This document shows, in pieces, positions 31,901 to 48,834 of a stretch of 64,000 nucleotides of DNA. Origin of the DNA: a bacterium (GTDB taxonomy: Bacteria > Electryoneota > JAOADG01); contig OY820579.1 in the NCBI GenBank assembly GCA_963681965.1, positions 1,024,001 to 1,088,000 of the forward strand, written 5' to 3'. The notes under the pieces are model-generated. The model did no database searches, was not told the origin of the DNA, and saw nothing but the letters and a program-made list of their open reading frames with translations. Numbering within the stretch: position 1 is the stretch's first letter; every line of letters starts with the position of its first letter. The position numbers and the translations under genes are program-made.

Positions 31901-34804
31901 CCTTATGGATCAATAGCGATTCCTATTTCAGGAAATGGTATCGGGTACTATCTGACAGTTTACCCCGATATTGCTCAGTTTCCGGGGTACACCGCCCCCG
32001 GTAATACGGGAATCCAATCGTTGATCGTGCAACATTCCGGCAATCGACCATTGCTGAATGGTCACTGGATCAATATCAATGGTCCATTTCGTGTAACACC
32101 CAACGAGATTCAACAGTTATTAGAAGGAAGCGCGAATACTTTCAATCTTTTGTTCGAACCGTTGGCACCCGGTTTCTACTACGGCGCGGTAGCATTGGTA
32201 TCGAATGCAATCAATGGCGATACGCTTGTCATTCCGTGTCGTGGAATTTCACCTTCTATCAACTTAACTAGTCACAATGTTAGCGATACGCTCGTCGTTG
32301 GCTTCCCCGATACGATTCGATGGACAAGTCAATTTCTAGGTGAAACAGTACGGATCGAAATCAATCGCAATTTCCCGAGTGAAAATTGGTCGACGATCGT
32401 CGATAACCTTGAAAACACCGGTCAAGCAGTATGGTATGTGTCGGAACCGAGTTCGAATACGGTTCGATTTCGGATTTCCTGTTCGACAAATCCGACAATA
32501 TTCGATCTTTCAGATACCAATTCAACAATTATTACGCCACTGAAAATTCTACATCCAATCGCTTCCGACTTGTGGCGGATCAATGCTCTCGATACGATAC
32601 TTTGGCAACCAACCGGGATTAGCGGGACCGTACGAATCGACTTGAATCGAAATTATCCTACCGGAAGTTGGGAGACAATTGTCGTTTCCGTTCCCAATGA
32701 TGGACAGTTTCTCTGGTGGCATGTGACGGGTCCAGCTACAAGCACTGCACGGATTCGAATTTCTTCAAATGAATCTGCGGGTATCGCGTCACTCTCGCCG
32801 GGAACGTTCCAAATTTATGCACCCTTGCAGCATCCGAATGGTGGTGAAACTCTACTGGTCGGTACTCCCGACAGTGTTCGATGGCAATATACCGACATCA
32901 CTGGAACACTAACGATAAAGTTGAATCGATATTTCCCTCGAGGTACATGGCAGACGATCACCTCATCTGCTCCGATAGAGACCGGATGGTTTCCTTGGAT
33001 ACCGAATGAACCGGTATCATCCGAAGCAAGAATCGCGATCATTCCGAATTCGGATAATACTGCTGCCGATACATCCGACGCGAATTTTATCATTCAGCAA
33101 CGATCATTGTCGATTATTCGACCGATCGGTAACGAACAATTTCTTGCGACTCGCGCCGATACTATTTGGTGGAATTGTTCCTATCCCACCTTGCTAACGA
33201 TTGTCTTGAATCGAAATGGGCGAATATTCAATACACCGGAAACACTGGCAACCAACGTGAACTCGTTGTTGGGTATGTACCACTGGATTCCCACGTTACC
33301 GGCAACCGATAGTGCATTTATCCAAATCATCGATCAATTGTCACCAACAATCACTGGATCTCTTAATCCATTCCGGATCAGGAATGCAGTTGTCGCATTG
33401 ACCAAACCAGCAGTCGGGGATGCGTTCTATTTTGGGGTTCCCGATACAATCCGGTGGATCGGTACTTCAAATTTAACAGGCGCATTAAATATCGAAATTC
33501 AACGAATCCCCGGTGGACCGTGGGTACCGTTAATTAGTAGTTCCGAAAACAATGGCGCTTATGTTTGGTCACCCGATGGCACGGAAAGCCAATTCTGTCG
33601 AATGCGAGTTCGATCGTTAATGAATACGGCAATTTCCGATTCCAATAATTTCGAATTTCCGGTGAGATATTGGAGTTGGTCGATGCAGCCTTATGTAGCA
33701 CGCAATCCGAATCGATTGACGAGTGTTCAAGAATCGTGGTCGCCGGCATTTCCCTTCGATCCCGGAACCGCATATAAACCGCCGGTTGAAATCATCTACA
33801 CACCGCAAATGGGTACACGACACAATCCCGATTCGGTGCGAGTAACCTATACTCCGTTTTCTACCGACGATTTGACCGATGCAACGACGATCAATCGAAT
33901 ATGGACGATTGTTCCGAGTAGCGAGGAATTTGAAGACGCGACTCTAAAACTTCGATTTACCGAGACTCAAGTACCGATCGGAATTCCCGATCCGACAACG
34001 GCAGACCCCGAATTCTACAGTATCAAATCTGAAGATGAGGGGATGACATGGATTTATGTCCCGGGTGGTAGTTTCTACCACGATCCATCGGCTCCTACCG
34101 CATTCATCTATGAAATTCCTGGATTGGATAAATTCTCGACATGGACAATCACCAATAGTGGATTCCAGCCGGAAGTTTCATATCCCGATGGTGGAGAGAA
34201 TTTAATCGTTGGACAGACCGACACAATTCGTTGGGGAAACAGTATTAGTGGCGGCAATGTCACCATCGAACTTAATCGGGAATATCCTGTCGGGGAGTGG
34301 GAAACTCTGTTTGCTTCGACACCAAACGATAGTGCCGAAGCATGGGTTGTTACGGAACCGATCACGTCACAGGCACGAATCCGGATCGTTTCCGATTGGT
34401 TCAGTACCGATGGCGATACGTCAACGTCGAATTTCACGATCAAACCTACAGTAGATTCTTCACCGAAATCGCTTACTTCGCTAACCGTTCTACCGGATAG
34501 TACTTCAATGGTGCTTAATTGGAACCGGGTGGATAGCACTGTCAGCGGATTGCGGATGATTATCGATGGCTATAAAGTCTATTATAGCTCAACCTGGAAC
34601 ACTGCGACCACTTTGTTGTCGACATTGTCGAACTGGCGCGATACAGTTTATACCGACACGAACGTCTGCAGTGGTACTACACAACGGTATTACATCGTAA
34701 AAGCCTTTATGGGGGCGAGTAGCACTTCGGTTTCACGTCCACTTGAAACCGCCCGCAGAAGTTATCTGCAACCCCGATATCGGAGTCGATTTTACAAGCG
34801 ATAA
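28931..34804 (+). CDS. Giant secreted/surface protein: parallel beta-helix, about 10 PNGGE Ig-like repeats, 2 ASH-like Ig domains and a FN3-like domain
   Basis: Signal peptide (AFA-VP); Asn/Ile-rich beta-helix N-terminal region; recurring PNG(G)E...I.W...RIELNRNYP..W...ARIRI...D.SD..F.I repeats; final FN3-like domain and basic tail. Confidence 0.8.
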   Translation: MSSSPYYRFCLIALWMLCAAINAFAVPLTGSYSIGALASDYPSFSAAVSALSTSGVGTGGVVFSVRTGIYREHVTIPPIPNASQMNQIVFQKELGPVEIRYTGTSGTSDAVVTLMGSDWITFDGIDVRDGGDNSLNYTEFGYYLQGASATDGVSHNRIQNCSIILNRVNSYSRGIYSEHTVSPSSPEGGNSYNAVLNIVISNAFYGIYLKGSNTNYDIGNEIGSSIAGLTNTNRTFIGSGGTDDIGGSSVVVQVPAGVQCQYQSELNIHDLDIGNVTSTTNFAAGISIQNASGNVTISGNRIFNIRHNSTTTANYGAYGINVSASTQATTKIFNNIVDNLNTSRTVETASVLLQGISVNTGTVYLDNNTIYLSPLTIGASNCCLMLQGGNLAIRNNILFNGTLPQTTAKHYAILYNAGTLAPSSNNLFSCTLNGNGFVGRSSNVDRMYLMDWSNATGQDLNSSFANPQFINPSTNDFHIQATTSSNAMFRAVPVPWVGQDIDAEARNLNTPAIGADEPLALQLIRPNGLEVFTIGNPDSIQFKMSGQTPVRIELNRNYPSSTWEILTAGVPNNSMQWIWSSVYGPSTNLARVRVVSLSNPAVGDTCDNNFSIIGTARLQLSRPNGNEVFVIGQSDTTRWIAEYVSGLVRIELNRNYPNDVWEILDSNTELTQQFWVWNPVGGMPSSTARIRLTAIQNSTISAISENDFTLMPPMLQLFQPNGGEYLPIGQQWTIGWMSNLPGFYRLQLNRNFPAGTWEIIQDNLQNVGSTVWNVSGAATTNARFRLLSITYPALGDTSDGDFSIVQPYISILSPIGGEILPINQIATINWAGRYFSGNVHILLNRTYPLNNWDTLFANIPNNGSIDWVVSGPSSVLGRIKILSVDNPSINATNGNNFTILSTSLNVTPNSIDFGNQAVKTIDSSLIAIYQPNGLGFSYHSISGGNSGSFSSRIVNRDTMILGSDSLQIWVRFKPDTVLTYQDTVRIECNAPYGSIAIPISGNGIGYYLTVYPDIAQFPGYTAPGNTGIQSLIVQHSGNRPLLNGHWININGPFRVTPNEIQQLLEGSANTFNLLFEPLAPGFYYGAVALVSNAINGDTLVIPCRGISPSINLTSHNVSDTLVVGFPDTIRWTSQFLGETVRIEINRNFPSENWSTIVDNLENTGQAVWYVSEPSSNTVRFRISCSTNPTIFDLSDTNSTIITPLKILHPIASDLWRINALDTILWQPTGISGTVRIDLNRNYPTGSWETIVVSVPNDGQFLWWHVTGPATSTARIRISSNESAGIASLSPGTFQIYAPLQHPNGGETLLVGTPDSVRWQYTDITGTLTIKLNRYFPRGTWQTITSSAPIETGWFPWIPNEPVSSEARIAIIPNSDNTAADTSDANFIIQQRSLSIIRPIGNEQFLATRADTIWWNCSYPTLLTIVLNRNGRIFNTPETLATNVNSLLGMYHWIPTLPATDSAFIQIIDQLSPTITGSLNPFRIRNAVVALTKPAVGDAFYFGVPDTIRWIGTSNLTGALNIEIQRIPGGPWVPLISSSENNGAYVWSPDGTESQFCRMRVRSLMNTAISDSNNFEFPVRYWSWSMQPYVARNPNRLTSVQESWSPAFPFDPGTAYKPPVEIIYTPQMGTRHNPDSVRVTYTPFSTDDLTDATTINRIWTIVPSSEEFEDATLKLRFTETQVPIGIPDPTTADPEFYSIKSEDEGMTWIYVPGGSFYHDPSAPTAFIYEIPGLDKFSTWTITNSGFQPEVSYPDGGENLIVGQTDTIRWGNSISGGNVTIELNREYPVGEWETLFASTPNDSAEAWVVTEPITSQARIRIVSDWFSTDGDTSTSNFTIKPTVDSSPKSLTSLTVLPDSTSMVLNWNRVDSTVSGLRMIIDGYKVYYSSTWNTATTLLSTLSNWRDTVYTDTNVCSGTTQRYYIVKAFMGASSTSVSRPLETARRSYLQPRYRSRFYKR

Positions 34805-34837: not shown

Positions 34838-37800
34838 ATGTCGGACAATTGGCTGTCGTCCATCACTGAAGATATCGAGAAACTGGCACAATTAATTGCG
34901 CCAATCGAAACAAAATCGCTCAATTTCATTGAGGGTGAGCGCCGTGAGGTTGCGATTCTCTTTCTGGATCTTCAGGGTTTTACTACAATGTCCGAATCGA
35001 TGGATCACGAACAACTTCACAAACTGATTTTTGGTGTAATGAGAACACTGGCAACGGTGATCGAACAACATGGAGGATACGTCGATAAATTCGAGGGAGA
35101 CTTGGTGATGGCGCTTTTTGGCGCGCAGCACGCCTCGGAAAACGATAGTATCCGCTGTGTTCAGTGCGGACTCCGGTTGTTTCAAGCACTCGAAGATATC
35201 AATCGACTGTTAAAAGAAAAATTGGGATTTACCCTTGGGGCGCGGATCGGTATCAATTTCGGATGGGTTACGGTAGCTCCCGATCCTTCTGGACATCTGA
35301 CTGCGATCGGCGATGATGTTAATCTCGCTTCCCGGATGGAATCATCAGCGACTGTTAACACCATACAAGTGACGGATTCAGTTGTAAAGCAGTGTGGCGA
35401 GTATTTTGTTTGGCAGGATTTAGGACAAATTTCGGTTCGCGGTAAACATGAACCGATTCATGTTTATCGTCCCATCGGGTTTGGCAAGACTGTGATCGAG
35501 CGCTGGGATCGCTCTAAGCGGGTTCAGCAAGTTCCTTATGTCGGTCGGCAGTTATGGTTGGATCGTCTACTCGAAATTTGGTCTACAAGATCGGTGATCG
35601 AAAATCCACGTAGTTCGCCAAAGCACTACTGGGTTGGTATTCACGGCGAAGCCGGTATCGGAAAATCGCGACTGGCGTTTGAATCCGATCAGTCGATTCG
35701 GAAATCAGATCCCGAGTGTATGATCATCAAAGGGCAAACTACCGCGATTGCGCAACCGCCATTTTGGCTGTGGATTACATTACTGAAAAGTTATTTCAAA
35801 TTCAACGACGCGACTCCCGATTCGGTCCAATTTGCGCAAGGGATTTCCCGTTTAAGATCGATAAATCGTACACTCGAACCGGCAACCTTCGATCGAATGG
35901 TCTTGTTGTTGGATTACATTTTGTCGCTTTCCAGTCCCGATGCAAGCATAAAAGCGATGGATGAAAAATCGCGGCGAACCGAAATTACGCTCGCAATTCG
36001 GGATTTTATCCGGTTGATAGCCCAATCGGTAAACCAGTTAGTTCTGATTTTAGACGACTTGCAATGGCTCGACAGCGGTTCGCGAGAAGTGCTAGAATTC
36101 ATCGTATCAAACTGCGAAACCGAAATGCCGATTTTTTTTGTTGGGTGTTACCGTACCGATCGCGACGACGGTCAACCAGTATCATTTACGATGAACGATC
36201 AGTATCTGATCAGCGAAACGATACGATTGAATTACTTGCCCGAACCGGAAATAAAACAATTAATCAACAACATTCTGACCTGCTCAGATCCGTCAACGAT
36301 TGCAATTCCCGATCAAATTGTCGACCAATTGACCAAGTATTCGCAAGGTAACCCGTTTTATCTGGAAGAACTGCTGCTCGATTGGATTGAAACGGGTAAA
36401 TTAACTGTTAGCGATGGCAAATGGATCGTCGAACAACCCATCTCGGATTTTGGAATTCCTACTAGTATCGCCAGCTTGATTCGTGCTCGCATGGATCGCT
36501 TATCGAAACAAGAGCGCGGTGCTTTGCAGCAGTGTTCGGTACTCGGCTTTGAATTTACACAAACACTCTTTCGTAAAGTTAAAGAAAAAATCGCCGAGAA
36601 GTATGCCGAAGATGTTGTACTGAAAGAGTTGGAGTTTCGAAAATTTTTAAGAAGTCTGGTCAATCTGGAAAATCTATTTTACCGGTTCAGGTTGACGACC
36701 ACCCGCGTTGTCGCGTATGAAACCTTGCTAATGCACAACCGGAAAATCCTTCACCACTTGACTGCAGAGACGATGGAAGAGATGTTCAAGGATGAATTGG
36801 ATATTGTATCCGAGATGCTCTCGATTCATTGGGAATTATCTGAAGAGTGGGATAAATCGATTGAAAGTGGTATTCGTGGATTGACATTTTTGTATCAATC
36901 CTACCAGAACCGGGAAGGATATTTTCTCGCAGAGCGGTTGTTGGAGTTGCTCCACAATAATTCCAACAAAGTCTCCGATTCAAAAGCATCTGAAATTGCG
37001 ATTCTATTTGCGATGGAGCGATTCTGCAATTTTCAGGGAATGCGCGATCGTCAGCAATCGATATTAAATCGCCTATTGGAATTGGTAGATGTTAATTCCG
37101 AACAATTTGTCGACGCGAAGGTCCGAGAAGGCAACCGCTATTTATTGACCGGCGAATATCGCAAAGCTGACGAGATTTATAACGAAGTACTTCCGATCGC
37201 CGATCGGCTCGAGCTAAAACAATTCGTCGCTTCATGCAAAGGGAATATTGGATTACTGCAGATATTCGATAAAAAGTATTCGATAGCCGAAAAATTGCTG
37301 ATTGAAGCAGTTGAAATCTTTCGGTCGATCGGCATGAAAGCTTACGAATCGTCATTTTTAATGAATCTCGGCGGTCTGTTGGCATCGCAACGTCGGATAA
37401 ATGAAGCAATTCCCTGTGTCGAAGCGGCGATTATTAATTTTGAGGCAATGCAAAACCGCCACGCTATCGCAAATGCGATGTCAAATTTATCTTTTCTAAG
37501 AATGCATCAACATCAGATCGATGATGCAATCGATCTGGCAACGAAAGCGCAGACAATTTTTTATGAAGTCGGGGATCGAAAAGCGGAAGGAGTTACGCTA
37601 TCTAACTTAGGTCACTTGAATCTGAGAATTTCGAAATTCAGTGAAAGTGAACACTATTTGAAACAAGCGCTCAAAGTGTTAACCGAGGTAAACGATCTAC
37701 CTACGATTGCCTCTGTGTATATCAATCTGATCGATCTGTTCGAACAACAAGCACGAAAAATCGATGCAATTGCAATCGTTGAATCCGCTATTCCACTTTT

Positions 37801-37867
37801 CGAAAAGTTGGGTCGGGCGGATGATGTTGGCGAACTGAAAAAGAAGCTAGTTTCGCTATCTTCTTAA
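34838..37867 (+). CDS. Class III adenylate cyclase - STAND AAA ATPase - TPR protein
   Basis: ILFLDLQGFT, DKFEGD, GDDVNLASRM, VRGK; Walker A GEAGIGKS, Walker B LILDDLQW, GNPFYLEE; C-terminal TPRs. Confidence 0.92.
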   Translation: MSDNWLSSITEDIEKLAQLIAPIETKSLNFIEGERREVAILFLDLQGFTTMSESMDHEQLHKLIFGVMRTLATVIEQHGGYVDKFEGDLVMALFGAQHASENDSIRCVQCGLRLFQALEDINRLLKEKLGFTLGARIGINFGWVTVAPDPSGHLTAIGDDVNLASRMESSATVNTIQVTDSVVKQCGEYFVWQDLGQISVRGKHEPIHVYRPIGFGKTVIERWDRSKRVQQVPYVGRQLWLDRLLEIWSTRSVIENPRSSPKHYWVGIHGEAGIGKSRLAFESDQSIRKSDPECMIIKGQTTAIAQPPFWLWITLLKSYFKFNDATPDSVQFAQGISRLRSINRTLEPATFDRMVLLLDYILSLSSPDASIKAMDEKSRRTEITLAIRDFIRLIAQSVNQLVLILDDLQWLDSGSREVLEFIVSNCETEMPIFFVGCYRTDRDDGQPVSFTMNDQYLISETIRLNYLPEPEIKQLINNILTCSDPSTIAIPDQIVDQLTKYSQGNPFYLEELLLDWIETGKLTVSDGKWIVEQPISDFGIPTSIASLIRARMDRLSKQERGALQQCSVLGFEFTQTLFRKVKEKIAEKYAEDVVLKELEFRKFLRSLVNLENLFYRFRLTTTRVVAYETLLMHNRKILHHLTAETMEEMFKDELDIVSEMLSIHWELSEEWDKSIESGIRGLTFLYQSYQNREGYFLAERLLELLHNNSNKVSDSKASEIAILFAMERFCNFQGMRDRQQSILNRLLELVDVNSEQFVDAKVREGNRYLLTGEYRKADEIYNEVLPIADRLELKQFVASCKGNIGLLQIFDKKYSIAEKLLIEAVEIFRSIGMKAYESSFLMNLGGLLASQRRINEAIPCVEAAIINFEAMQNRHAIANAMSNLSFLRMHQHQIDDAIDLATKAQTIFYEVGDRKAEGVTLSNLGHLNLRISKFSESEHYLKQALKVLTEVNDLPTIASVYINLIDLFEQQARKIDAIAIVESAIPLFEKLGRADDVGELKKKLVSLSS

Positions 37868-38132
37868 AACTCACTGACATGAGAGTCATGTATTGTAAGG
37901 GAAATTTTGGTAAGTGTAATCGCGCACAAACCGTAATAATTTATTGTGTGTTAAGTTGTAATAGCAACATGTAATAATATTAACAGGGTAAATATTCATC
38001 TAAGAATTATATGTATCTATATTATAATGAGATATAGATATTTTAGCATTCACAGTATTGGCGATCAGAACTAAATTACATTTTCTCGACTTCTCCAATT
38101 GTAAATCACACGTAATTCACTTACCATAATAG

Positions 38133-38176
38133 TGTAAAGAATGCGGACAATGAATTGTTAAGTGTCTTAACAATTC
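38133..38176. promoter_or_regulatory. Tandem TGT-N11-ACA enhancer-type sites; the second is a perfect 11-bp inverted repeat
   Basis: TGT-AAAGAATGCGG-ACA (38133-38149) and GAATTGTTAAG-TGT-CTTAACAATTC (38152-38176), offset by 23 bp. Confidence 0.55.
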
Positions 38177-38268
38177 GAAGTGCTACTATCGGTTCAATTG
38201 ATCGTAGATATTGACTGCGTACTTCCTGCCCGTGACTAGATTTCCATAGAAGATTCGCGTGATTGAAT

Positions 38269-41200
38269 ATGACAAATTCAAACTTAACGTTTCCGGACTA
38301 TTTTGCACATCGATACCGAGTTGAAAGAATATTGGGTAGTGGTGAAAACGGAACCGTATTTCTTGTCCGCGATATTTTGCAGCATGATCGATTACTAGCC
38401 CTCAAACGATTCCATCCCGGATCAATATCCGAAAGCGCTTTTCATTCGACAGCCAAACATCTCCGAGCTATCCAGAAATTGAAATGCGATGGTTTACTCA
38501 CTGCCATCGAGTTCGGCTTCGATCAACATAGTCAATTCTTTTATACTTCGGAGTATTGCGCCCACCCATCGCTGGAAGAAGAGTGGTGGAACCTTACTAA
38601 CCCAGAAAAGATAATTGTGTTATACGATCTTGCTGACATCATGCTTTCTCTTCATGATCATCAGGCACTTCATTATCATTTACACCCACGCAATGTTTTC
38701 ATCAATTTGTCAAACTTACGTAGTGACAATCGTCAGGGAAAAACGGTTCTGATCGGAGATTACTGCTTTCTGCCGGAAGAAAAAATCAGTGGCGGTTGTG
38801 CCGGGTATCGAGCACCGGAATTTGTCAATGATCAAAAATTCGACCACAAATCGGACATCTTCTCGTTCGGCGTGATCGGGTATTCTCTGTTAATGCAGCT
38901 TCCTCCGGACTTATCAACTTTAGCTGATAATATTAACAGTTTTTCGACCTCAGATGCTGAGATGGTTTCGAATAATATGATTGATAATTTATCGAAACTG
39001 CTGGTATCGCAACTTTTCCGCTGTATGAACCCCGTACCTAACTTTCGCCCCTACGATTTTCGCGAAATAATTTCGATTTTTCAGTATTCTCGTCAACGAC
39101 CTGATTGTAACGAAAAGTTGATTGTATCATTTCCATTTACCGGTCGAAGCGGTGAATTAAGGTTTTTAGGATCGATACTACACGATACGAAACAAGGCGA
39201 GCAATGGGCAGTAAATATTTTCGGTAGTAAGGGTGTTGGAAAGAGTCGATTGATTGACGAGTTTGCTTTCAATTATCAATTTAATGGTGGAATCGCTCTG
39301 TTTGTCGGCTCATCACTGATCGATACGCTTAAACGCTTCAATCCCAATCTATCGAGTAGCGAAACGGATCGTCAACTGACTAATCAGGCGATGCATCAGC
39401 ATTTTAGTGACACACTAATTTCTATTACTGACCACAAACCGATCGTAATCTGCTGGAATCAATTCGATCGTGCGGATACCGCATCCATAACTCTATTCAA
39501 AGAATTGCTGCTGCTTTATCCATCGCTACCAATTTTCTGGTTGTTGGAGAGTGAGTTGCCGGCACTGAGTCTCGATGGATTAGGTTTTACCGATCGGGTT
39601 ATTCGTCGCGAATTATTGCCGTTTTCTATGGAAGAAGTTGAAAAACTACTTCAGAACGTATTTCCTCGAACCGAGCATACTGGTAATTTAGCAAAATTAT
39701 TGAGTACACATTTCGGGACTCGACCGGGTTGGTTTGAATATGCAATAAATCGATTGATATCAAACCGCGCGATCAGTAACAACTTTGGTCGATGGGAAAT
39801 CGATATCGGATTAACCCAAAAGCTACTGCACGAAGATGGGGAATTAGTTCGAGTCGACCTTAGCAAGCTTTCGCAAGACGCTCAAACATTACTGGAGTGG
39901 ATGGCAGGACGGTCGAAACCGTGTCGAAAAGAAGAACTGCAATCGGCTATTAGCTTGACGGAGAGTGGATACTTTTCGGCAACGAATCAGTTGTTAAAGA
40001 TCGGGTTAATTGAGATTCATGGACCCGTGTTGAATATCCGATATTCGGCAGTGCGCGATGAAATCATCCGCTGCCTTTCGGAAAATAAGCGCAAAGTACT
40101 ACACAGTTGGATCGGTCGCTGGTTGGAAGAAAATATTTCGAATACTCCGAAACAATCCGAACTGTGGGAGATCGTTAAACATTATTATGAAGGCAGCGAC
40201 CGGTCATCATTCTTGAGAGTAATCGAAGAGTTGATTGCGAGATTTTATCGAAAACCGTCTTTGATCATTGACACGGAAATAATTCTGAAAGCGCTGTTAG
40301 AGCAGGATAGTCCGCTTCAGATGGAAAACCAATATCGCGGGTATTATCTGCTAGGTTTGTTGTATATCTTTACCGAAAAATTTGAGAAAGCGGTATGGGT
40401 ATATCGAACGGTATTAAGTACGAAAGCCTTCAAACCATACTACACTCTCTACTGGGCGCACAATATGTTGGGGCAGGCACTTTATGCCATGCAGGATTTT
40501 GCGAGTGCCGATCGAAATTTCCGACTTGCCATACGGTTGAATAAATCGCAATCGATCGATGAATTACCGCAATCGTTGCGAGCGCTGGCAACAATTTGTC
40601 ACAACCGAGCCAAGTACGACGCTGGGATCGAGTACATCGAAAAATACTATCAATCGATTCAACAAATTGAAGATTTAAATCGGAAGTACGACGAATTGTT
40701 CCGGTGTGGGCGCCTCTACTACATGTACAATATTCGCGAAAAAGCGGTCGAGCTTCTTCAGGAAGTTTACAATTGTACTCAATATACATCCAGTTTCATG
40801 AGACACATATCGTATGACACTATTATCAAAATTACGATGATGAAAGGTGAATTTCGTCTTGCCCTGCAAATGCTACAAAAGTATTTAATGCAACATAACG
40901 ATCCGCTACCTAGTAATCTGCAGTATAAGTTCGACTACACGAGAATTTTGTGTTATATCTCAACTGGGAAAGCCGACCAATGTTGGTTGCTGGTAGATAC
41001 TTATCAAGTACAAATTAAAATCTATCTCAATGTTTCAAGTCGCTTGCTCATTTCCATCGATTTAGTGCAACTTTTTTATTATTTCGGAAAGTTTCAATCG
41101 GGTTTGAAAGTTTTGCGGGAAGTCTTCTTATTATTCCGGGTGAGCAAACATCATTCGAATCTGCCGATATATTTAGCTTGGGTAGCGCAGTATTTCTATT

Positions 41201-43278
41201 TGATCAAACCGTCGAAACCGAAATTCTACGAACTCATCGATCGATACTTGATCAAAAATAAATCCCAAACCACGGCTACTTTCGGAAATCAGATCATGTA
41301 CGATCTTTATTGCGATCTGAATCAACCGATCCGGGCAAAAGCCGCACTAGAGCGAATCCCTAGAAAAGTCGGAATGAAGGATGTCGATATTCCCGATGAA
41401 TTGATAGTTGCGATGCAGTTCCGGATGGAAATCGAGTTGACTAAACCGCAATCGATCGACGAACCGAAATATAGTGAAATAGAAAAAAGTGTTCGAAACT
41501 TAGCTGATGTTTTCAATCAAGTACAGCTCTATCGCGAATTGATGAATGCCGCAATTGTGCAAACCGCGATTTCGTTGGCTGATCGATATTTCCATCGAGC
41601 ACTTGAATTGTTATTGTATGTTAAAGCTGACCTGTTAATTGCTCAATTGTATGAGAAATATGGATCGGCATTATATCGCTGGAATCGATCGCCAGTTGGA
41701 GCCGATTATCTGTCCAAGGCAAAGCGAATACTGATCGGATTGGGAATGCCCTATCGCGGAATCGACCCACAAAATATCGAAAATATCTCAGTGAATGGAG
41801 ATGACGAAATGAGTCGAATGATCGAACCATTGCGAATGATAACCAGATTAGTCGAGCGATTCAATGAGTTGGACGACCCAAGAACAATTATGCGACAACT
41901 GCTGGAAACGACTGTTACCGGTTTGAATGCAAAAATTGGGTGGGTTATTCAACTGAACAAAAATAATCAATTGTCGAAAAACGGAATGATTGCTACCGAC
42001 TCGGGGGCTTTACACGACGACTTATTGGAGTTGGGATCGAAAACTCTAAATCTTAATGAAGCAAAATACATCGAGCAGTTTACCAGAATTAATGATCGTA
42101 GCGATTCGACGTCAAATTACGGTATCTGTTTACTACCGATTTCGACTCGGGGAATTCGATCGGGAGTACTCTTGGTCGAATTCGCACAGATTCATGAATT
42201 CAATTCTGAGGAAAAGTGCGTTCTGGAACTCGTAGCTCAGATTTTCGGATCGATGTTCACTTTTGAAAACCAACTCGAGATGACTAGAAAAGATACTTCG
42301 CTAACACAAAGCGTGTTACTGAACGATGGGTACAGCGAATTAAAAGGGAATTCCCCGGCAATGCAAGAGGTTTACCGAATTCTGGCATTGCTTCGTAAAC
42401 AGGATTTACCGGTACTAATTCTTGGTGAAAGTGGAACTGGAAAGGAGTTGGTCGCGAATATTATGTATCGGCAGAGCAATCGGTCCGATAAACCGTTCTA
42501 TGCATTGAATTGTGCTGCTTTCCCCGATACACTGATCGAGAGTCAGTTGTTTGGTCACGTCAAAGGCGCTTTCAGTGGCGCAATGTCGAATCACGATGGG
42601 TTTTTCAAAACAGCCGAAGTAGGAACAATCTTTCTGGATGAAGTAAACCACATGAGTCCGATGATGCAAGGGAAGTTGCTTCGTGTGTTGCAGGAAGGCG
42701 AGTATTTTCCCGTCGGTTCGACGAAAGTTCAAAAGACCAATGCACGAATCATTTGTGCAGCCAAAAACACATTACCCGAGATGTTGCGAAGCGGGCAATT
42801 TCGCGAAGATTTATTTTACCGCATCAATGTGATCGAGGTTAAAATCCCGCCGTTACGCGATCGAAAAGAGGATATTAAAATCCTCGCCGAATATTTTATC
42901 CAAAAATTCAATAAACAATTTTCGGCATCGGTAAAAGGGATTCGGAACACAGCCATGCAGTCATTACAGAGTTATTCTTGGCCGGGAAACGTTCGGCAGT
43001 TGGAGAACGCAATTCGACACTCATTTTTATTTGTTAAGAAAAACACTTGGATCGACGCATCGCACCTTCCTCAAGAAGTCGTACAAAACACACTTCCACT
43101 AATTGATCAATCGATCTCGCTGACCAAAAAGATTGAAGACCTTGAACGGCAATATCTTTTACAGGCACTTGAACTGTCTCATTGGAATAATTCCGAAGCC
43201 GCGAGAATCCTGGGAGTCAGCCGACAAACGGTGATTCAAAAAATCAAACGGTACGGATTGTCCCAATCGAACACATAG
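38269..43278 (+). CDS. Pseudokinase - STAND ATPase - TPR - GAF - sigma54 AAA+ - Fis HTH transcriptional activator
   Basis: Kinase fold (YRVERILGSGENG, ALKR, YRAPE, SDIFSFG); GRSGEL...GSKGVGKS; TPR-like helices; GAF; GESGTGKE, ESQLFGHVKGAFSGA, FLDEV, FREDLFYR, WPGNVRQL; NNSEAARILGVSR. Confidence 0.92.
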   Translation: MTNSNLTFPDYFAHRYRVERILGSGENGTVFLVRDILQHDRLLALKRFHPGSISESAFHSTAKHLRAIQKLKCDGLLTAIEFGFDQHSQFFYTSEYCAHPSLEEEWWNLTNPEKIIVLYDLADIMLSLHDHQALHYHLHPRNVFINLSNLRSDNRQGKTVLIGDYCFLPEEKISGGCAGYRAPEFVNDQKFDHKSDIFSFGVIGYSLLMQLPPDLSTLADNINSFSTSDAEMVSNNMIDNLSKLLVSQLFRCMNPVPNFRPYDFREIISIFQYSRQRPDCNEKLIVSFPFTGRSGELRFLGSILHDTKQGEQWAVNIFGSKGVGKSRLIDEFAFNYQFNGGIALFVGSSLIDTLKRFNPNLSSSETDRQLTNQAMHQHFSDTLISITDHKPIVICWNQFDRADTASITLFKELLLLYPSLPIFWLLESELPALSLDGLGFTDRVIRRELLPFSMEEVEKLLQNVFPRTEHTGNLAKLLSTHFGTRPGWFEYAINRLISNRAISNNFGRWEIDIGLTQKLLHEDGELVRVDLSKLSQDAQTLLEWMAGRSKPCRKEELQSAISLTESGYFSATNQLLKIGLIEIHGPVLNIRYSAVRDEIIRCLSENKRKVLHSWIGRWLEENISNTPKQSELWEIVKHYYEGSDRSSFLRVIEELIARFYRKPSLIIDTEIILKALLEQDSPLQMENQYRGYYLLGLLYIFTEKFEKAVWVYRTVLSTKAFKPYYTLYWAHNMLGQALYAMQDFASADRNFRLAIRLNKSQSIDELPQSLRALATICHNRAKYDAGIEYIEKYYQSIQQIEDLNRKYDELFRCGRLYYMYNIREKAVELLQEVYNCTQYTSSFMRHISYDTIIKITMMKGEFRLALQMLQKYLMQHNDPLPSNLQYKFDYTRILCYISTGKADQCWLLVDTYQVQIKIYLNVSSRLLISIDLVQLFYYFGKFQSGLKVLREVFLLFRVSKHHSNLPIYLAWVAQYFYLIKPSKPKFYELIDRYLIKNKSQTTATFGNQIMYDLYCDLNQPIRAKAALERIPRKVGMKDVDIPDELIVAMQFRMEIELTKPQSIDEPKYSEIEKSVRNLADVFNQVQLYRELMNAAIVQTAISLADRYFHRALELLLYVKADLLIAQLYEKYGSALYRWNRSPVGADYLSKAKRILIGLGMPYRGIDPQNIENISVNGDDEMSRMIEPLRMITRLVERFNELDDPRTIMRQLLETTVTGLNAKIGWVIQLNKNNQLSKNGMIATDSGALHDDLLELGSKTLNLNEAKYIEQFTRINDRSDSTSNYGICLLPISTRGIRSGVLLVEFAQIHEFNSEEKCVLELVAQIFGSMFTFENQLEMTRKDTSLTQSVLLNDGYSELKGNSPAMQEVYRILALLRKQDLPVLILGESGTGKELVANIMYRQSNRSDKPFYALNCAAFPDTLIESQLFGHVKGAFSGAMSNHDGFFKTAEVGTIFLDEVNHMSPMMQGKLLRVLQEGEYFPVGSTKVQKTNARIICAAKNTLPEMLRSGQFREDLFYRINVIEVKIPPLRDRKEDIKILAEYFIQKFNKQFSASVKGIRNTAMQSLQSYSWPGNVRQLENAIRHSFLFVKKNTWIDASHLPQEVVQNTLPLIDQSISLTKKIEDLERQYLLQALELSHWNNSEAARILGVSRQTVIQKIKRYGLSQSNT

Positions 43279-43453
43279 TTTTTCGATCTCCAACACGATC
43301 CTGCATACAACTTAACTTATTAATAATCAATAAGCGTTTGAGATCTGTATAGATATCGATCAAAACGTTGATGCTGGATTCCGTCTAATAATATAGTTGT
43401 TGCCGAAAAGATTATATAAGCATTATTTATATATAATTACGGTATGTATTTTC

Positions 43454-43470
43454 TTGGCACATATAATGCT
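43454..43470 (+). promoter_or_regulatory. Sigma54 (-24/-12) promoter
   Basis: TTGGCAC-ATATA-ATGCT has exact GG-N10-GC spacing. It lies just downstream of a sigma54 activator gene and about 60 nt before an ORF with a GGGAG RBS. Confidence 0.8.
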
Positions 43471-43529
43471 TCTCTACATGTGAAAGTAGGATCCAAAATT
43501 TCTAACGTTCACAATCGGGAGAATCCATT

Positions 43530-43820
43530 ATGAAATCGCAGTTTAAAGCTTTGATTTGTATCGCCGTAATTCTCTGCCTTTCAATACTACCGAAAATAGG
43601 TTTTTGTGCTTGGGAATTTCAAGATGAGACTGGTGATGCGATTGTTCTCACTCGTACCGATCAAGTGAAGCATGAGATCAATAAAGGGATTTATTGCTTT
43701 TATGATGCCGGTGTAAACAAATGGATTACCATTTTGGATTTTTCACAATCACCCTACCCACTAGTGTCGATTCCGGGTTACACCCTGGTTTGGAAACCAG
43801 ATTCAAATTACGATTTCTAA
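43530..43820 (+). CDS. Small secreted hypothetical protein (96 aa)
   Basis: GGGAG RBS; N-terminal signal peptide (MKSQFKALICIAVILCLSILPKIGFC/A); follows the sigma54 promoter. Confidence 0.7.
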   Translation: MKSQFKALICIAVILCLSILPKIGFCAWEFQDETGDAIVLTRTDQVKHEINKGIYCFYDAGVNKWITILDFSQSPYPLVSIPGYTLVWKPDSNYDF

Positions 43821-43888
43821 CATTCGGTGACGTTCATTTTATGCTTTCATTTTGTGTCGTCGAGTCAATATGTCAGTGAGAAACGAAT

Positions 43889-44200
43889 ATGATCAATACT
43901 CGTCAAGCCGTACCTGATCAAGTCCAAGCGATTTGGGATCGTCTCTTGAATGAAGAAAATGTTATGGGAATGCGCAACCGAAGACCGGCAAATGCACGTT
44001 ATGCGATCTTTCGTGCAAAAGAGTTGCTCCCGATCGAATTCAATAATTTAAGATCGGCATTTGATCGATCACCAATCAATTTTGAGGAAAACGAAGAAGA
44101 TCAGTATCAACACCTGTCGTATTTGGCAAATATATCCTATTATGTCGTATTTCGCATTATTGAACATTCGGAATATAGTGCAGATGCCGTATTGAATTAA
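43889..44200 (+). CDS. Hypothetical protein (103 aa)
   Basis: ATG-started ORF, co-oriented with its neighbours and 13 nt before the next ORF. No family recognised. Confidence 0.5.
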   Translation: MINTRQAVPDQVQAIWDRLLNEENVMGMRNRRPANARYAIFRAKELLPIEFNNLRSAFDRSPINFEENEEDQYQHLSYLANISYYVVFRIIEHSEYSADAVLN

Positions 44201-44213
44201 TTCTGGGACAAAT

Positions 44214-45104
44214 ATGGAAACCCAATTGTTGGAATTAACCAAGAAAATAAAAAAAATGCCGGATGGTGATTTTCGCTCTCAATTGCATCTTACGATACCG
44301 AAAGAGAACAAGCGAAATCAGTCATCGCAAAAGCGAATTCTTTACAGTTTTCCGGAAGAACCTCGGCTGCAGGTTCAACAATTGGGATATCTCATTAATA
44401 TTCTTCACCAGCATCTTCTGGGGAGTACTATTGAAAGTCACCGCGATTCAATCATTTCGATTCGATCTTATGGTGTTTATTATCTGATCAGTGAACTGTT
44501 GGAAAAAGTCGCAGCGGATGTAATCTCGGATCAAGAGCTTAATGTGAATTCGATTGCCTGGTGGGTGGGTGCGCTGCTTGACGACCAAATTGACTGGAAT
44601 ACTTCCTTTGATCGGATGTTGCAGCTCATTTATTATCCAGTTGATAATGGGTTAAATGACGTTGAATATTTGAAACAGAACTCCCCAATCTCGATTTTTC
44701 TTTCAGATGTTTTTAATAACAACATTTTAGGATCGACTTCCGTTGCATACTCTACTACTCCAATCCAATTTATTACCTCTGGAATATTGTGTGACAATGA
44801 ATTAATGTATTTTTACCGAAAATTGTCGAGCTGGCACAAAAATGGTATTCATCCGTGGATTAACTTATTGGATTACCGCTCTTTGGTGAAATGTGCAATT
44901 AGCTGCTATCAAATTCAACGATATCTTGAAATCCATTCGGGTTGGAAATGGCAGAAGATCGCGGAGGTGTTGAATGATATCCGAGCGATAAGGATCAGTT
45001 TAACAACGGAAGCCGTCACGTTAATTACTCGCCCGAATGTTGAACAAATGGAATTGTTCTACCGGCTAGATATACCCCCGCCAAAATCTGTGATAACCGA
45101 TTAA
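44214..45104 (+). CDS. IS1634-transposase-derived protein, internally deleted and lacking a recognisable DDE motif
   Basis: By eye, the N-terminus (RSQLHL..ENKRNQSSQKRILYSF...SIRSYGVYYLISELLE) and C-terminus (ISCYQIQRYLEIHSGWKWQKIAEVLNDIRAIRI...LITRPNVEQMELFYRLDIPPP) resemble the ends of IS1634 transposases. Only 296 aa. Confidence 0.5.
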   Translation: METQLLELTKKIKKMPDGDFRSQLHLTIPKENKRNQSSQKRILYSFPEEPRLQVQQLGYLINILHQHLLGSTIESHRDSIISIRSYGVYYLISELLEKVAADVISDQELNVNSIAWWVGALLDDQIDWNTSFDRMLQLIYYPVDNGLNDVEYLKQNSPISIFLSDVFNNNILGSTSVAYSTTPIQFITSGILCDNELMYFYRKLSSWHKNGIHPWINLLDYRSLVKCAISCYQIQRYLEIHSGWKWQKIAEVLNDIRAIRISLTTEAVTLITRPNVEQMELFYRLDIPPPKSVITD

Positions 45105-45489: not shown

Positions 45490-45864
45490 ATGCATACTTC
45501 CAAAAGCGTCATTCCGGTGCTGAAACTATTCGATTATTTGATCGTTACGATCCAAATCGATATGGACGATCTAACCGCCAATCTCTTTCGAAACGACATT
45601 CTTAAGCAAATCGAAAAAACCAATGCAAAAGGTGTATTGATCGATATTTCGGTGATCGATTTAGTAGACAGTTATCTCGGTCGGGTTTTAGGCGACACGG
45701 CACGAATGGCAAAATTAATGGATTGCGAAGTCGTTCTGGTCGGTATGCAACCTGCAGTAGCATTGACTTTGGTCGAATTAGGCTTAAGTCTTGAATCGGT
45801 TCACACTTGTTTAAATCTGGAAGCCGGTCTAAAACTGTTGAACCGGTTAACCAAGGATCGATAA
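45490..45864 (+). CDS. rsbS: Stressosome STAS protein RsbS
   Basis: IPVLKL, GVLIDISVIDLVDSY (conserved Ser) and VGMQPAVALTLVELGL motifs. Confidence 0.9.
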   Translation: MHTSKSVIPVLKLFDYLIVTIQIDMDDLTANLFRNDILKQIEKTNAKGVLIDISVIDLVDSYLGRVLGDTARMAKLMDCEVVLVGMQPAVALTLVELGLSLESVHTCLNLEAGLKLLNRLTKDR

Positions 45865-46274
45865 TGGATCCCACTATTATCGAAATCATAGAAGAAAAAG
45901 ACATTGTAGTCTGTCGTCAGGAATGCCGCAATCAAGCGCGGTTGCTGGGCTTTTCCTTAGTCGATCAGACGCGAATTACCACTGCCGCCAGTGAACTCGC
46001 CCGAAATATTTACGAATACGCCAAGAAGGGCGAAGTGCGGATTGAAAAGATTCAATCGTCGAACGGTATCGGATTGAAAATGTCGTTTATCGATCACGGT
46101 AAGGGTATCGAGAATGTCGACCTAGTGATGAAAGACGGGTGGAGTTCCCATCAAGGTATGGGAATGGGATTACCCGGATCGAAACGATTGATGGATGAAT
46201 TCTCGATTCAGTCTGAAATCGGAAAAGGAACGACTGTAGTAGCTGTGAAGTGGTTGCACAAGGTTTTGATTTAG
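45864..46274 (+). CDS. rsbT: Stressosome serine/threonine kinase RsbT
   Basis: LGFSLVDQTRITTAASELARNI, DHGKGI and GMGMGLPGSKRLMDEF motifs. The ATG at 45864 overlaps the rsbS stop (TAATG). Confidence 0.92.
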   Translation: MDPTIIEIIEEKDIVVCRQECRNQARLLGFSLVDQTRITTAASELARNIYEYAKKGEVRIEKIQSSNGIGLKMSFIDHGKGIENVDLVMKDGWSSHQGMGMGLPGSKRLMDEFSIQSEIGKGTTVVAVKWLHKVLI

Positions 46275-46287
46275 AGAAAGGACAACG

Positions 46288-47280
46288 ATGGAAGCGAAAT
46301 TGGGATCACTAGAAAATCTAAAAGGGTTAATGGATGCAACAACCGGATTTTTGCGTGTAACCGATATCAATCAATTGTGTCAATTGACGGCGGATTCAAT
46401 TATCAAGTTTTCACCATTTCAGCGGTGCGTTGTTTCTGTATCTGAAACCGATGGAACATTCCGTCGAGTAGGCTTCAGTGGAATCAACAAAGCGCAAATC
46501 GATGAACTACTCAATATGCCCCGCCGCAAATTGTCCGAAACACAATCGCAACTGCAGGAACGCTTTCTAATCAGTCGATCCTATTATATTCCTCACGATG
46601 TTTCGAATTTGGTTGGTTTGAAAAGTACGATTACTTACGATACCAAAGCCGAATGGCATCCGGACGACTTCCTGTTCATTCCGTTGTACAATCCCGATAA
46701 TTCGATCGTCGGTTTAATCAACGTTGACGATCCATCGGACGGTCTCCGACCCACGGTTGCCAAATTATTGCCGTTGGAGATTTTTGCCAACCAAACGGCT
46801 GCAGCGTTGGAAAATATTCGCGGGATCCAGAAACAGCAGGAATTAATTCAACGGTTGCGCGATCAACAAAATGTCGTGCTGGAATTATCAACTCCGGTAA
46901 TTCAAATCACCGATCAAATATTGGCGCTACCGTTAATCGGAGCTGTGGACAGTGCCCGTGCGCAACAAATAATGGAAAATATTCTGATCCGGATTACCGA
47001 AACGGAAAGTGCTGTCATCATTATCGATATTACCGGAGTACCGATTATCGATACTTTAGTCGCTTCGCACTTGATCAAGACGGTCGCTGCGGCGAAACTG
47101 CTTGGTACGGAAGCGATTATCTCGGGAATTAATCCGGAAATAGCTCAAACGTTGATTCATCTTGGAGTTGATTTGACGAAGATTACAACGAAATCCAAAT
47201 TGTCCCGGGCATTGGATACGGCGTTGAAAATGACAAATCGAAAAATCGCTCCACTATTTGTTGAAAAAGAGAATGATTAA
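46288..47280 (+). CDS. rsbR: Stressosome sensor RsbR with N-terminal GAF domain
   Basis: GAF domain (WHPDDFLFIPL...VGLINVDDP) plus STAS domain (ELSTPVI, LPLIGAVDSARA, DITGVPIIDTLVA). Confidence 0.88.
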   Translation: MEAKLGSLENLKGLMDATTGFLRVTDINQLCQLTADSIIKFSPFQRCVVSVSETDGTFRRVGFSGINKAQIDELLNMPRRKLSETQSQLQERFLISRSYYIPHDVSNLVGLKSTITYDTKAEWHPDDFLFIPLYNPDNSIVGLINVDDPSDGLRPTVAKLLPLEIFANQTAAALENIRGIQKQQELIQRLRDQQNVVLELSTPVIQITDQILALPLIGAVDSARAQQIMENILIRITETESAVIIIDITGVPIIDTLVASHLIKTVAAAKLLGTEAIISGINPEIAQTLIHLGVDLTKITTKSKLSRALDTALKMTNRKIAPLFVEKEND

Positions 47281-48347
47281 TGGCACTTGAAGGTTTGTCG
47301 CCCGATATCTTTTCAGTATCGGTGGCGCCGGGCGAGAAACTGAGGGTGATATCGTATCAATCGTCGTACGATTCATCATCGATTATCGCTGTAGCTTGTG
47401 GATTTGGGATTCAATTCGGATTTGTCGAACGCGACATTCAGGAACTTGAGATCGTAGTTCGCGAGTTGCTTGCAAATATTTCACGTCATGGAGGTGGAGA
47501 AGGCACGATCGTTTTTTATTCACGGGAATTGGCGGATCGTCTACCGACGTTGATTATTGATTTTATGGATAATGGTCCCGGTTTTCCCGATTACGATCTT
47601 TCGCTTCACGATAATACAATCAGTGGATTTACACCGGGAGGCGGATTACCATCGGCTCGACGGTTTTGTGATCGTGTCGAACTAATGCCGAATTCACCGA
47701 AAGGCGCAATTGTTCGAATCACGAAATCCAGCAGTCGGTCGAATCCACACCGTATCGGTTCGTTTGTTGTTTTGTCGAAACCGCATCTGGGTGAAACGCA
47801 CAATGGCGATCAGGCGACAGTAATTCACACCAATAATTTTACATTGGTCGCACTGGTTGATGGATTGGGTCACGGTTTAGTTGCTTTTCAAGCGGCAAAA
47901 TCCGCGATCACGATCATCGAACAAAATTATCAAGTACCACTTGATCAATTGATCAAAATTATGCATATCGAATTGATGAAAACGCGGGGTGCAGCGGTTT
48001 CGCTGGCAAAGATCAATTACGATCCACAGACGATCGATTATCTGGGTATTGGAAATGTAAATACGGCACTGATTTCCAATACAGCGAATCACTTAGTGAA
48101 TTACAACGGTACTGTCGGGCTTGATATTTCCCGGTCGCATGTTGTAACATACAAATATGAATTGGGCATGCGATTGATTATGTATACTGACGGTTTGGCG
48201 AGTAATTGGATGAAAAATCAAGATTTGAACATTGAGTGCGATGCCTTGCAACAGGCACACACCATTTTGTCCAGTCATGCCCGACCAACCGATGACGCAA
48301 CGCTGGTATTGGGTAAATTGATGCTTTGGACTCCGGAAAATGGATGA
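47280..48347 (+). CDS. rsbX: RsbT-like HATPase fused to RsbX-like PP2C phosphatase
   Basis: ELLANISRH, DNGPG, GGGLPSARR; then NGD, VDGLGHG, TRGAA, YTDGL and DDAT. Confidence 0.8.
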   Translation: MALEGLSPDIFSVSVAPGEKLRVISYQSSYDSSSIIAVACGFGIQFGFVERDIQELEIVVRELLANISRHGGGEGTIVFYSRELADRLPTLIIDFMDNGPGFPDYDLSLHDNTISGFTPGGGLPSARRFCDRVELMPNSPKGAIVRITKSSSRSNPHRIGSFVVLSKPHLGETHNGDQATVIHTNNFTLVALVDGLGHGLVAFQAAKSAITIIEQNYQVPLDQLIKIMHIELMKTRGAAVSLAKINYDPQTIDYLGIGNVNTALISNTANHLVNYNGTVGLDISRSHVVTYKYELGMRLIMYTDGLASNWMKNQDLNIECDALQQAHTILSSHARPTDDATLVLGKLMLWTPENG

Positions 48348-48834
48348 GAACGATCAAATCATTGCCGGTCTGAAAAACGATATTCAATCGCTCCGCGACG
48401 AATTGGCTGAAACCAATCGAGGAGTAATTGCACTATACTCCGAAATTGAAGACGCCAATCTTCAATTACAACAACAGCGAAACGAATTGAAAGCTAAAAA
48501 CGATCTCCTTGAAGCAACGATGGTGCAGTTGGAAGAGGCGAATCGCGAAATCTCCAAACGTGAACGTAATGCCGCCATCGGACAAATGGTCATTACCTAC
48601 AATCACGAAATCAACAACCCGCTCTTTGTCATCCAAGGGACACTAAGTTTGATGCAAAAATTCCCGCCCAAGGATGAGGAAAAGTTGAAAGAAAAAATTC
48701 GTATTATCCTTGATAATTGCGATCGAATCAGTCGCGTCCTACTTCGGATCAGAGAATTTGACAATCTCTTGCCGAAGAAGTATTTGAATAGCGAGTTGCT
48801 TGATCTCAAATTAACTAAAGATTTAACAACCTGA
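48340..48834 (+). CDS. Coiled-coil plus HisKA (DHp) domain protein without an ATPase domain
   Basis: ELAETNRGVIALYSEIE (typical of stressosome-linked kinases) and H-box TYNHEINNPL. The ORF ends before any HATPase domain. Confidence 0.75.
   Translation: MDENDQIIAGLKNDIQSLRDELAETNRGVIALYSEIEDANLQLQQQRNELKAKNDLLEATMVQLEEANREISKRERNAAIGQMVITYNHEINNPLFVIQGTLSLMQKFPPKDEEKLKEKIRIILDNCDRISRVLLRIREFDNLLPKKYLNSELLDLKLTKDLTT

Follow-up and report, generated by a model that had tools for sequence, protein, structure and literature searches.

The DNA examined here is a stretch of 64,000 nucleotides (nt), referred to below as the window, from a bacterium of the phylum Electryoneota (contig OY820579.1, positions 1,024,001 to 1,088,000) whose genome is assembled as a single contig of 4.24 Mb at 99.9% completeness. 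Within the window lies a compact block of four plus-strand genes and one promoter element, which together are the subject of this work. The block begins with a gene for a sigma-54 activator of 1669 amino acids (aa), a single long open reading frame (ORF) carrying a series of Pfam domains (38269..43278, +). This gene is followed by a -24/-12 element that can be read directly from the sequence as TGGCAC-ATATA-ATGC (43455..43469, +), a gene for a 96-aa protein of a small family with a signal-peptide-like N-terminus (43530..43820, +), a lineage-specific 103-aa ORF lying between two conserved genes (43889..44200, +), and a gene for a 296-aa protein that profile comparison identifies as derived from an IS1634 transposase (44214..45104, +). 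A preliminary description, made from the letters of this DNA alone, had correctly placed a long activator ORF on the plus strand but set its start at 38133, about 135 nt too early; the start is the ATG at 38269 (alternative TTG at 38263) and the stop is at 43278. A 251-nt spacer with the promoter inside it separates the activator stop from the first small gene, and the promoter element begins 176 nt past the stop codon. The three downstream ORFs are co-directional, with gaps of 68 and 13 nt, and a scan found no terminator-like sites in or between them; the scan for sigma-70 promoters and terminators gave results at the level of shuffled sequence. With a GC content of 41.1%, compared to 47.35% for the genome, the block falls in the lowest 0.9% of 7-kb windows, in agreement with an earlier impression, gained by eye, that it is AT-rich.

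In order to determine how widely this arrangement is kept, 79 genomes of the same phylum were searched with a profile of the 296-aa family. The family was detected in seven of them, comprising three of the four genomes of the window's own family and four of the 16 genomes of a second family. Full-length relatives of the activator, at 27-35% identity over almost all of its length, are found in a few same-phylum genomes, one of which is recorded as Candidatus Hatepunaea meridiana (Candidatus Electryoneota), and downstream of the first two of these relatives lie relatives of both the 96-aa protein (E ~1e-5) and the 296-aa protein (E 1e-17 to 1e-20). A gene of the 96-aa family is directly upstream of the counterpart of the 296-aa gene (the 300-aa gene) in all seven genomes, each of which also has an orthologous activator (27-40% identity). 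Six of the seven have the activator gene on that contig, immediately 5' of the small gene. In the remaining genome (G001), which belongs to the same genus, the contig ends 180 nt 5' of the small gene and a fragment of the activator is found on another cut contig. A scan of metagenome contigs yielded two short contigs, one of which (L030) has the small gene beside the 300-aa gene and represents an eighth locus; the other (L031) is identical to genome G039 and was excluded as not independent.

In total, seven genomes have kept the activator, the promoter, the small-protein gene and the transposase relic together, at 22-40% protein identity. As non-coding sequence would not be expected to persist over such distances without selection, we take the activator gene and its neighbouring promoter, along with the genes for the small exported protein and the 300-aa protein, to be one functional unit. 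The proposed check of whether a -24/-12 promoter and a small secreted ORF follow homologous activators was answered for the seven genomes carrying the 296-aa family, all of which have both. Flanking genes otherwise differ among the loci, although a soluble histidine kinase with PAS, HisKA and HATPase domains, absent from the window, is found directly downstream of the 300-aa gene in five of the seven; no membrane segments are present in these adjacent kinases. The low GC content, the patchy distribution and the differing flanks suggest that the module moves horizontally as a unit, and it is probably best described as a compact, sigma-54-dependent regulatory unit that was horizontally acquired. 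A search for repeats between 37800 and 45600 returned short matches at chance level and no insertion sequence (IS)-like terminal repeats or repeated operator.

The GG and GC of the promoter element are at the canonical spacing of 11 nt, and the element lies 60 nt 5' of the ATG at 43530. An equivalent element is present 45-63 nt 5' of the small gene's ATG in all seven orthologous loci, reading TGGCACATATAATGC in the window, TGGTATGGAATTTGC in G039, TGGCATGATTAATGC in G027, TGGCATAAAATTAGC in G047, TGGCATGAAATCTGC in G045, TGGCACGAAAGTTGC in G002 and TGGCACGGAAATTGT in G001. Both the sequence itself and these equivalents uphold the -24/-12 promoter, TGGCAC-N5-ATGC, that had been proposed at this position. 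In the genome there is one rpoN gene (one gene with Sigma54_DBD), alongside nine strong sigma-54 activator genes. It contains 16 copies of the strict motif TGGCAC-N5-TTGC, with eight sites outside ORFs of at least 120 aa compared to 1.7 expected, and two of these eight intergenic sites adjoin other activator genes. Given this excess, and the two sites beside activator genes, the organism appears to use canonical sigma-54 promoters. Relaxing one position to TGGCAC-N5-NTGC gives 43 sites on both genome strands, 12 of which are outside ORFs of at least 120 aa compared to 4.6 expected; the site at 43455 is among these 12 and is the sole intergenic site of its kind in the window.

Several further features were observed around such promoters. 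Intergenic TGGCAC-N5-TTGC sites at ~70881 (-) and 3887043 (-) of the genome lie at most about 1.5 kb from activator genes at 71633-72133 and 3888459-3888965, respectively, and it may be common in this genome for an activator gene to stand next to the promoter that it targets. In G039 (L013, ~9240-9320) and G047 (L028), G+C-rich hairpins with T runs are located between the activator stop and the -24/-12 element, which, judged from sequence, suggests that the activator and the downstream genes of these two genomes are separate transcription units. An AT-rich block, AAG(C/T)AT..ATTTAT..ATATA, lies just 5' of the -24 element and is common to G039 and G047 and, more loosely, to the window.

The activator protein combines a long STAND sensor of the PknK/MalT-like kind (kinase fold, P-loop NTPase and TPR) with a NifA-like output part (divergent GAF, sigma-54 AAA+ and HTH_8), all encoded on the plus strand. 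From the N-terminus, Pfam models detect a protein kinase domain (Pkinase; residues 16-260, nt 38314-39048, E 1.6e-16) and an AAA_16 STAND NTPase domain (residues 289-423, nt 39133-39537, E 7e-13), followed by TPR repeats at approximately residues 690-760 (nt 40336-40548; TPR_8, TPR_2 and TPR_14). The TPR repeats are under the Pfam cut-off in a whole-protein scan, TPR_8 reaches the cut-off when the sub-sequence is scanned, and TPR_MalT is significant in three of eight homologs. A GAF-like region comes next (residues 1203-1327, nt 41875-42249), for which the GAF_2 match has an E of only 0.013; the homologous stretch ahead of the AAA+ domain is a significant GAF domain in four of the eight aligned homologs. 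The C-terminal part contains the sigma-54 AAA+ domain (Sigma54_activat, PF00158; residues 1359-1524, nt 42343-42840, E 5e-63), AAA_lid_14 (residues 1530-1608, E 5.8e-25) and a Fis-type helix-turn-helix (HTH) domain, HTH_8 (residues 1622-1662, nt 43132-43254, E 6e-13). No membrane segment is predicted in the activator. The AAA_16 P-loop NTPase followed by a TPR repeat sensor is the arrangement that defines a STAND protein, and the STAND-like sensor of the preliminary description is borne out by these two domains.

Alignment indicates that the AAA+ part retains the Walker A motif GESGTGKE, IFLDEV, REDLFYR and a GAFSGA loop. The position of the GAFTGA loop is occupied in orthologs by GSFTGA, GAFTGA, GGFTGA, GAFTDA and GSFSGA, and a Thr-to-Ser change in this loop, such as the GAFSGA of the window, can stay functional. 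Of the elements expected of a sigma-54 activator and its target, PF00158 with its Walker motifs, a GAFTGA-type loop, an HTH domain, rpoN and a -24/-12 promoter are found here. At the other end of the protein, the kinase fold is kept, with a Gly-rich loop (GSGENG) and the beta-3 Lys in ALK. In the window's copy, the catalytic loop is HYHLHPRN and GDY stands in place of DFG; the catalytic Asp and Lys are both replaced, and the domain is likely a pseudokinase. The kinase of G002 is degenerate too (HRRLHPNN and DAG). The four second-family orthologs keep HYDLKPxN, three of them keep DFG, and G045 has NFG. Based on these residues, the kinase in the window's family is probably a pseudokinase, in which case phosphotransfer would not be essential to the module.

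Two side observations concern the activator gene itself. The 400-nt spacer 5' of it (37868-38268) is very AT-rich, with many short palindromes and TATA-like repeats; no -24/-12 element is present in this spacer, and the activator gene is therefore probably not sigma-54-dependent. In G027 (contig C7, 79683-83627), a 1351-aa paralog has 26% identity to activator residues 9-1309 and lacks the sigma-54 part. This protein may be a version of that sensor whose output is different or absent; it lies close to the end of its contig.

The ancestry of the 296-aa protein was resolved by profile comparison. The protein has no Pfam match, including DDE_Tnp_1 (PF01609), and scores 11.6 bits against NF033559, for which the cut-off is 100. 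A profile built from eight family members was compared with 1.84 billion representative sequences and matched 53 proteins at E <= 0.001, about 28 of which are full-length relatives. Below these full-length relatives are proteins of 530-577 aa that match the profile in two stretches, and these are IS1634-family transposases (NF033559 E 1e-113 to 1e-123, DDE_Tnp_1). With hhalign, residues 6-148 of the family align with residues 1-156 of the IS1634 transposase (probability 97.2%, E 4e-11), and with hmmsearch, profile positions 204-272 align with transposase residues ~461-530 (E 1e-7 to 1e-12 per transposase). Transposase residues ~160-460 are outside both aligned stretches, and the DDE_Tnp_1 core (transposase ~190-470) is replaced by approximately 50 residues in the 296-aa protein. 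Because both transposase ends match and the DDE core is gone, these alignments identify the protein as a core-less derivative of an IS1634 transposase, in keeping with its earlier label as transposase-derived. A search of the ESM Atlas gave weak leads (0.85) to IS4-like transposase fragments.

Reading frames are intact in family members that have 20-27% identity to the window's copy. The 296-aa gene is single-copy in its genome, and no convincing flanking inverted repeat was found. No IS1634 transposase is present in its own 99.9%-complete genome or in four of the five other module genomes tested, and a role for the 296-aa protein in regulating resident IS1634 copies was accordingly set aside as unlikely. 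In G027 (L014, 6021-7420, -), a second copy of the 300-aa gene has its own TGGCAT-AGTTT-ATGC element.

The 96-aa protein belongs to a family with 18 members among 5.8 billion proteins, all of which are unnamed or named "hypothetical". All eight aligned members begin with a charged N-terminus and a hydrophobic stretch of 13-20 residues, followed by small residues, and the mature part begins at an aromatic residue that is conserved. We infer that this N-terminus is a Sec signal peptide, and the single N-terminal hydrophobic stretch, shared by all eight, fits the earlier view of the protein as secreted. The AlphaFold2 model of the window's protein has five beta strands at a predicted local distance difference test (pLDDT) score of 82, and the mature part of about 70 aa is predicted to be all-beta. 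No solved fold matches this model (best Z 2.3, Foldseek best E 0.29), nothing usable was returned for the 96-aa protein by the ESM Atlas, and profile searches of Protein Data Bank (PDB) sequences gave no meaningful match for the 96-aa or the 296-aa protein. Scans of the 96-, 103- and 296-aa proteins against Pfam, NCBIfam, PADLOC and PHROGs likewise gave no matches, save for a noise-level match of the 296-aa protein to IS1634 (E 0.1), which the profile comparison bore out.

The 103-aa ORF is of a different character. Its only match among the 5.8 billion proteins is itself, no relatives were found in G001-G003, and the same-genus locus has just 71 nt where the window has this ORF. In codon usage it resembles real genes, with a score of 0.133 that matches their mean and exceeds the 95th percentile for antisense ORFs. 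Taken together, it is probably a young, lineage-specific gene. Three orphan genes had been described at this locus, and this designation applies to the 103-aa ORF alone, as the 96- and 296-aa proteins each have a small conserved family.

Two upstream sites had also been proposed to complete a layout of enhancer, integration host factor (IHF) site and promoter, and both fared less well than the promoter. The sequence TGT-N11-ACA is present at 43259-43275 (+) but falls within the final codons of the activator's reading frame, and any TGT-N11-ACA occurs in only three of eight orthologous promoter regions (shuffled mean 0.84, P ~0.05), which does not support its proposed role as an enhancer. A different candidate emerged from the orthologous regions, as the heptamer TGTAAAA/TTTTACA is found 100-170 nt 5' of the -24 element in six of eight, forming complete palindromes in G001 and G045. 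This count of six was not reached in any of 2000 shuffles, which preserved mononucleotide content only; the heptamer was chosen post hoc as the top-ranked of all 7-mers. The IHF-like sequence GATCAAAACGTTG is present at 43358-43370 (+) and has one mismatch to the IHF consensus, which is that of E. coli. It is at most a candidate IHF site, and none of the three HU/IHF-family genes in the genome reaches the NCBIfam cut-offs for IHF alpha or beta.

The genes on either side of the block were also examined. Directly upstream (34838-37867, +) is a gene for a 1009-aa STAND protein with Guanylate_cyc, AAA_16 and TPR domains, the cyclase domain of which matches the PADLOC models for PycC (Pycsar cyclase) at the domain level (E 4e-17), and upstream of this (28931-34804, +) is a 1957-aa ORF without any Pfam or PADLOC match. 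Downstream (45490-48834, +) is a cluster in the style of partner-switching systems, encoding a STAS protein, an RsbW-like HATPase, a GAF-STAS protein, a HATPase_c_2-SpoIIE phosphatase and a 164-aa protein with HisKA only. This cluster occupies the place of the soluble PAS histidine kinase seen in five of the seven orthologous loci. Both the cyclase-AAA_16-TPR gene and the STAS/SpoIIE cluster were considered as parts of the module and rejected, as neither is conserved beside it elsewhere.

From these observations, we consider it likely that the module converts a cytoplasmic cue, through the sigma-54 promoter at 43455-43469, into an exported protein and a transposase-derived partner that acts as a second-tier regulator or in feedback. 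The STAND/TPR and GAF parts of the activator would sense the cue and release the AAA+ domain; the activator would bind upstream DNA through its HTH domain, and the AAA+ domain would remodel the sigma-54 RNA polymerase at 43455-43469. The 96-, 103- and 296-aa genes would then be transcribed as one operon, a prediction drawn from the gaps of 68 and 13 nt and from the scan that found no terminator-like site. The exported protein would constitute the extracytoplasmic output. The transposase relic retains non-catalytic transposase parts that are presumed to bind DNA and to pair, and it would most likely serve as a second-tier DNA-binding regulator or feedback component rather than as a transposase. 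The pairing of activator and promoter, the co-transcription, the export and the DNA binding are thus all predicted from sequence.

A number of observations weigh against this reading of the module. No RNA run is listed for this sequence, which is present as contigs in six runs from two studies. The relaxed -24/-12 pattern that covers all seven loci was composed after the sites had been seen, and its 476 genomic matches correspond to 0.017 per 300 nt on a single strand; a stricter pattern, TGGYAY-N5-NTGC, fits five of the seven. The -12 part of the window's element is ATGC rather than TTGC, and that of G001 is TTGT, without the GC. The TGTAAAA/TTTTACA heptamer is absent from the regions of the window and G039, and the searches for TGT-N11-ACA and for the heptamer identified no enhancer in the window. 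Only conserved adjacency ties this promoter to the neighbouring activator as opposed to the eight others in the genome. In G027, the small gene is separated from the first 300-aa gene by a strong stem-loop, and co-transcription may be partial there. Finally, the AlphaFold2 model of the 296-aa protein is of middling confidence (pLDDT 68) and has no counterpart among solved folds (Foldseek best E 0.08 against the PDB; VIA-align best Z 5.0, over residues 1-78 only), so that DNA binding by the relic is predicted from its ancestry.

Other explanations of the same locus were weighed against this evidence. The preliminary description had suggested a cell-cell signalling loop, in which the exported protein of about 70 aa would be released as a signal, be sensed again by the population and act back on the activator. 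A small exported protein under a dedicated sensor-activator would suit such a loop, as would the histidine kinase gene directly 3' of the 300-aa gene in five of seven loci. However, neither the activator nor these kinases has a membrane segment, and they could not see an extracellular protein directly; the kinases are soluble rather than receptor-like, the window lacks one altogether, and no gene for import or processing is conserved in the module. As none of the tools applied lent it support, we regard signalling of this kind as improbable. Also suggested was an inducible defence or conflict module whose STAND sensor detects an invader and turns on an effector pair. STAND NTPases with TPR sensors are common in defence systems, the block is low in GC and patchy in distribution, and the immediate upstream neighbour encodes a further STAND protein, which carries a cyclase domain, all of which would accord with defence. 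That neighbour does not nevertheless accompany the module in other genomes, PADLOC detects in the activator just the generic kinase and AAA+ domains, and neither PADLOC nor PHROGs returned anything for the three products, which have no recognisable nuclease, protease, pore or NADase domain. With no tool in its favour, a defence function appears unlikely on present evidence.

The remaining two explanations question parts of the unit itself. The promoter could be real and yet be served by a different sigma-54 activator, with the giant regulator acting elsewhere, and both the nine strong sigma-54 activator genes of this genome and the lack of an identified enhancer in the window that matches the adjacent activator would allow for this. 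Such an arrangement does not readily explain why activator and promoter are adjacent in six of the six loci where this is visible, at 27-40% protein identity and with flanks that otherwise differ, and we consider it very unlikely. The block could alternatively be a decayed insertion sequence with chance ORFs and without function, as would be compatible with the transposase ancestry of the 296-aa protein and the low GC of the region. Decay is hard to reconcile with a fixed gene order, with an internally deleted form that is itself a conserved family (about 28 full-length representatives, with intact frames at 20-27% identity), and with a genome that holds neither an inverted-repeat partner copy nor any other IS1634 sequence, and this explanation is scarcely credible. 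Of the sense-and-respond module proposed at the outset, the conserved unit of activator, promoter and downstream genes is supported. Its description as undescribed holds for the module and its targets but not for the activator architecture, which is common in databases.

The module shares its regulatory logic with known systems and departs from them in its sensor and its targets. The C-terminal 480 residues of the activator align over nearly the full AAA+ and HTH parts of NifA, NtrC, NorR and FhlA (E 1e-70 to 5e-93), and as in the NifA, NorR and FhlA type, the activator gene is beside its presumed -24/-12 target promoter. Unlike NifA, NorR and FhlA, the window's activator falls far below every equivalog cut-off, has approximately 1200 extra N-terminal residues (kinase fold, STAND NTPase and TPR), and carries GAFSGA where these proteins have GAFTGA; its targets, moreover, are unrelated to nitrogen, nitric oxide or formate metabolism. 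The N-terminal order of Pkinase, AAA_16 and TPR is that of PknK and MalT, and one relative of the activator has been named "serine/threonine-protein kinase PknK" by JGI. In contrast to PknK and MalT, the output here is a sigma-54 AAA+ domain with a Fis-type HTH rather than a LuxR-type HTH, and the catalytic Asp and Lys of the kinase are replaced in the window's copy. PspA with PspF, and HrpV with HrpS, are feedback partners encoded in sigma-54 operons, and the module resembles the PspA and HrpV cases in having a cytoplasmic protein encoded in the operon that its activator is predicted to switch on, although the proteins share neither sequence nor fold similarity. The 296-aa protein, for its part, is homologous over its N-terminal ~150 and C-terminal ~70 residues to the ends of the 530-577-aa DDE transposases of IS1634 (IS4-like). 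It differs from these enzymes in being encoded by a single-copy gene that is fixed beside a regulator, conserved as a family and without a partner IS.

Long relatives of the activator are numerous in databases, with 2281 proteins at E <= 1e-30. Among the best 120 of these, 118 have both Pkinase and Sigma54_activat, and most also have AAA_16, TPR and GAF. They are found in metagenome-assembled genomes of Acidobacteriota, Zixibacteria, Calditrichota, Myxococcota, Planctomycetota and others, where their annotation goes no further than "sigma 54-interacting transcriptional regulator", "Nif-specific regulatory protein" or "PknK". Only about 10 clusters align over ~99% of the activator, and for the rest the best local alignment covers only 14-35% of the query. 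In the literature consulted, mostly as abstracts, we found no described signal, target, phenotype or function for the kinase-STAND-sigma-54 architecture; the Sorangium cellulosum genome paper reportedly mentions fusions of kinases with sigma-54 activators. Within the same, mostly abstract-level sources, no paper was found on the module, on its product families or on an IS1634 derivative that lacks its core and keeps a fixed regulatory setting. What is new, then, is the conserved module, its two product families and the constant regulatory surroundings of this core-less derivative, while the regulatory logic is textbook and the activator architecture was already in databases.

The module is a minimal testable case for this class of regulator, as a single activator, a conserved promoter and a pair of conserved products lie within 7 kb. 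Its small exported protein family has no match among solved structures, and the core-less IS1634 derivatives, as a new family with an unvarying regulatory setting, are a candidate for transposase domestication in bacteria. If the module proves to be ordinary gene regulation, the gain would be modest, consisting of a new regulon in an uncultured phylum. A more far-reaching interpretation, which we advance tentatively and hold to be rather doubtful, is that activators of this kind are bacterial NLR-like transcription factors, in which a cytoplasmic STAND sensor would directly license the sigma-54-dependent output of an exported 70-aa protein of new fold together with a domesticated, nuclease-less IS1634 protein. 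The latter would bind DNA sequence-specifically, as a second-tier transcription factor or as the sensor's feedback partner. If this interpretation is true, the module would show bacteria domesticating a transposase by a new route and would provide the first defined regulon for an architecture found in thousands of environmental genomes.

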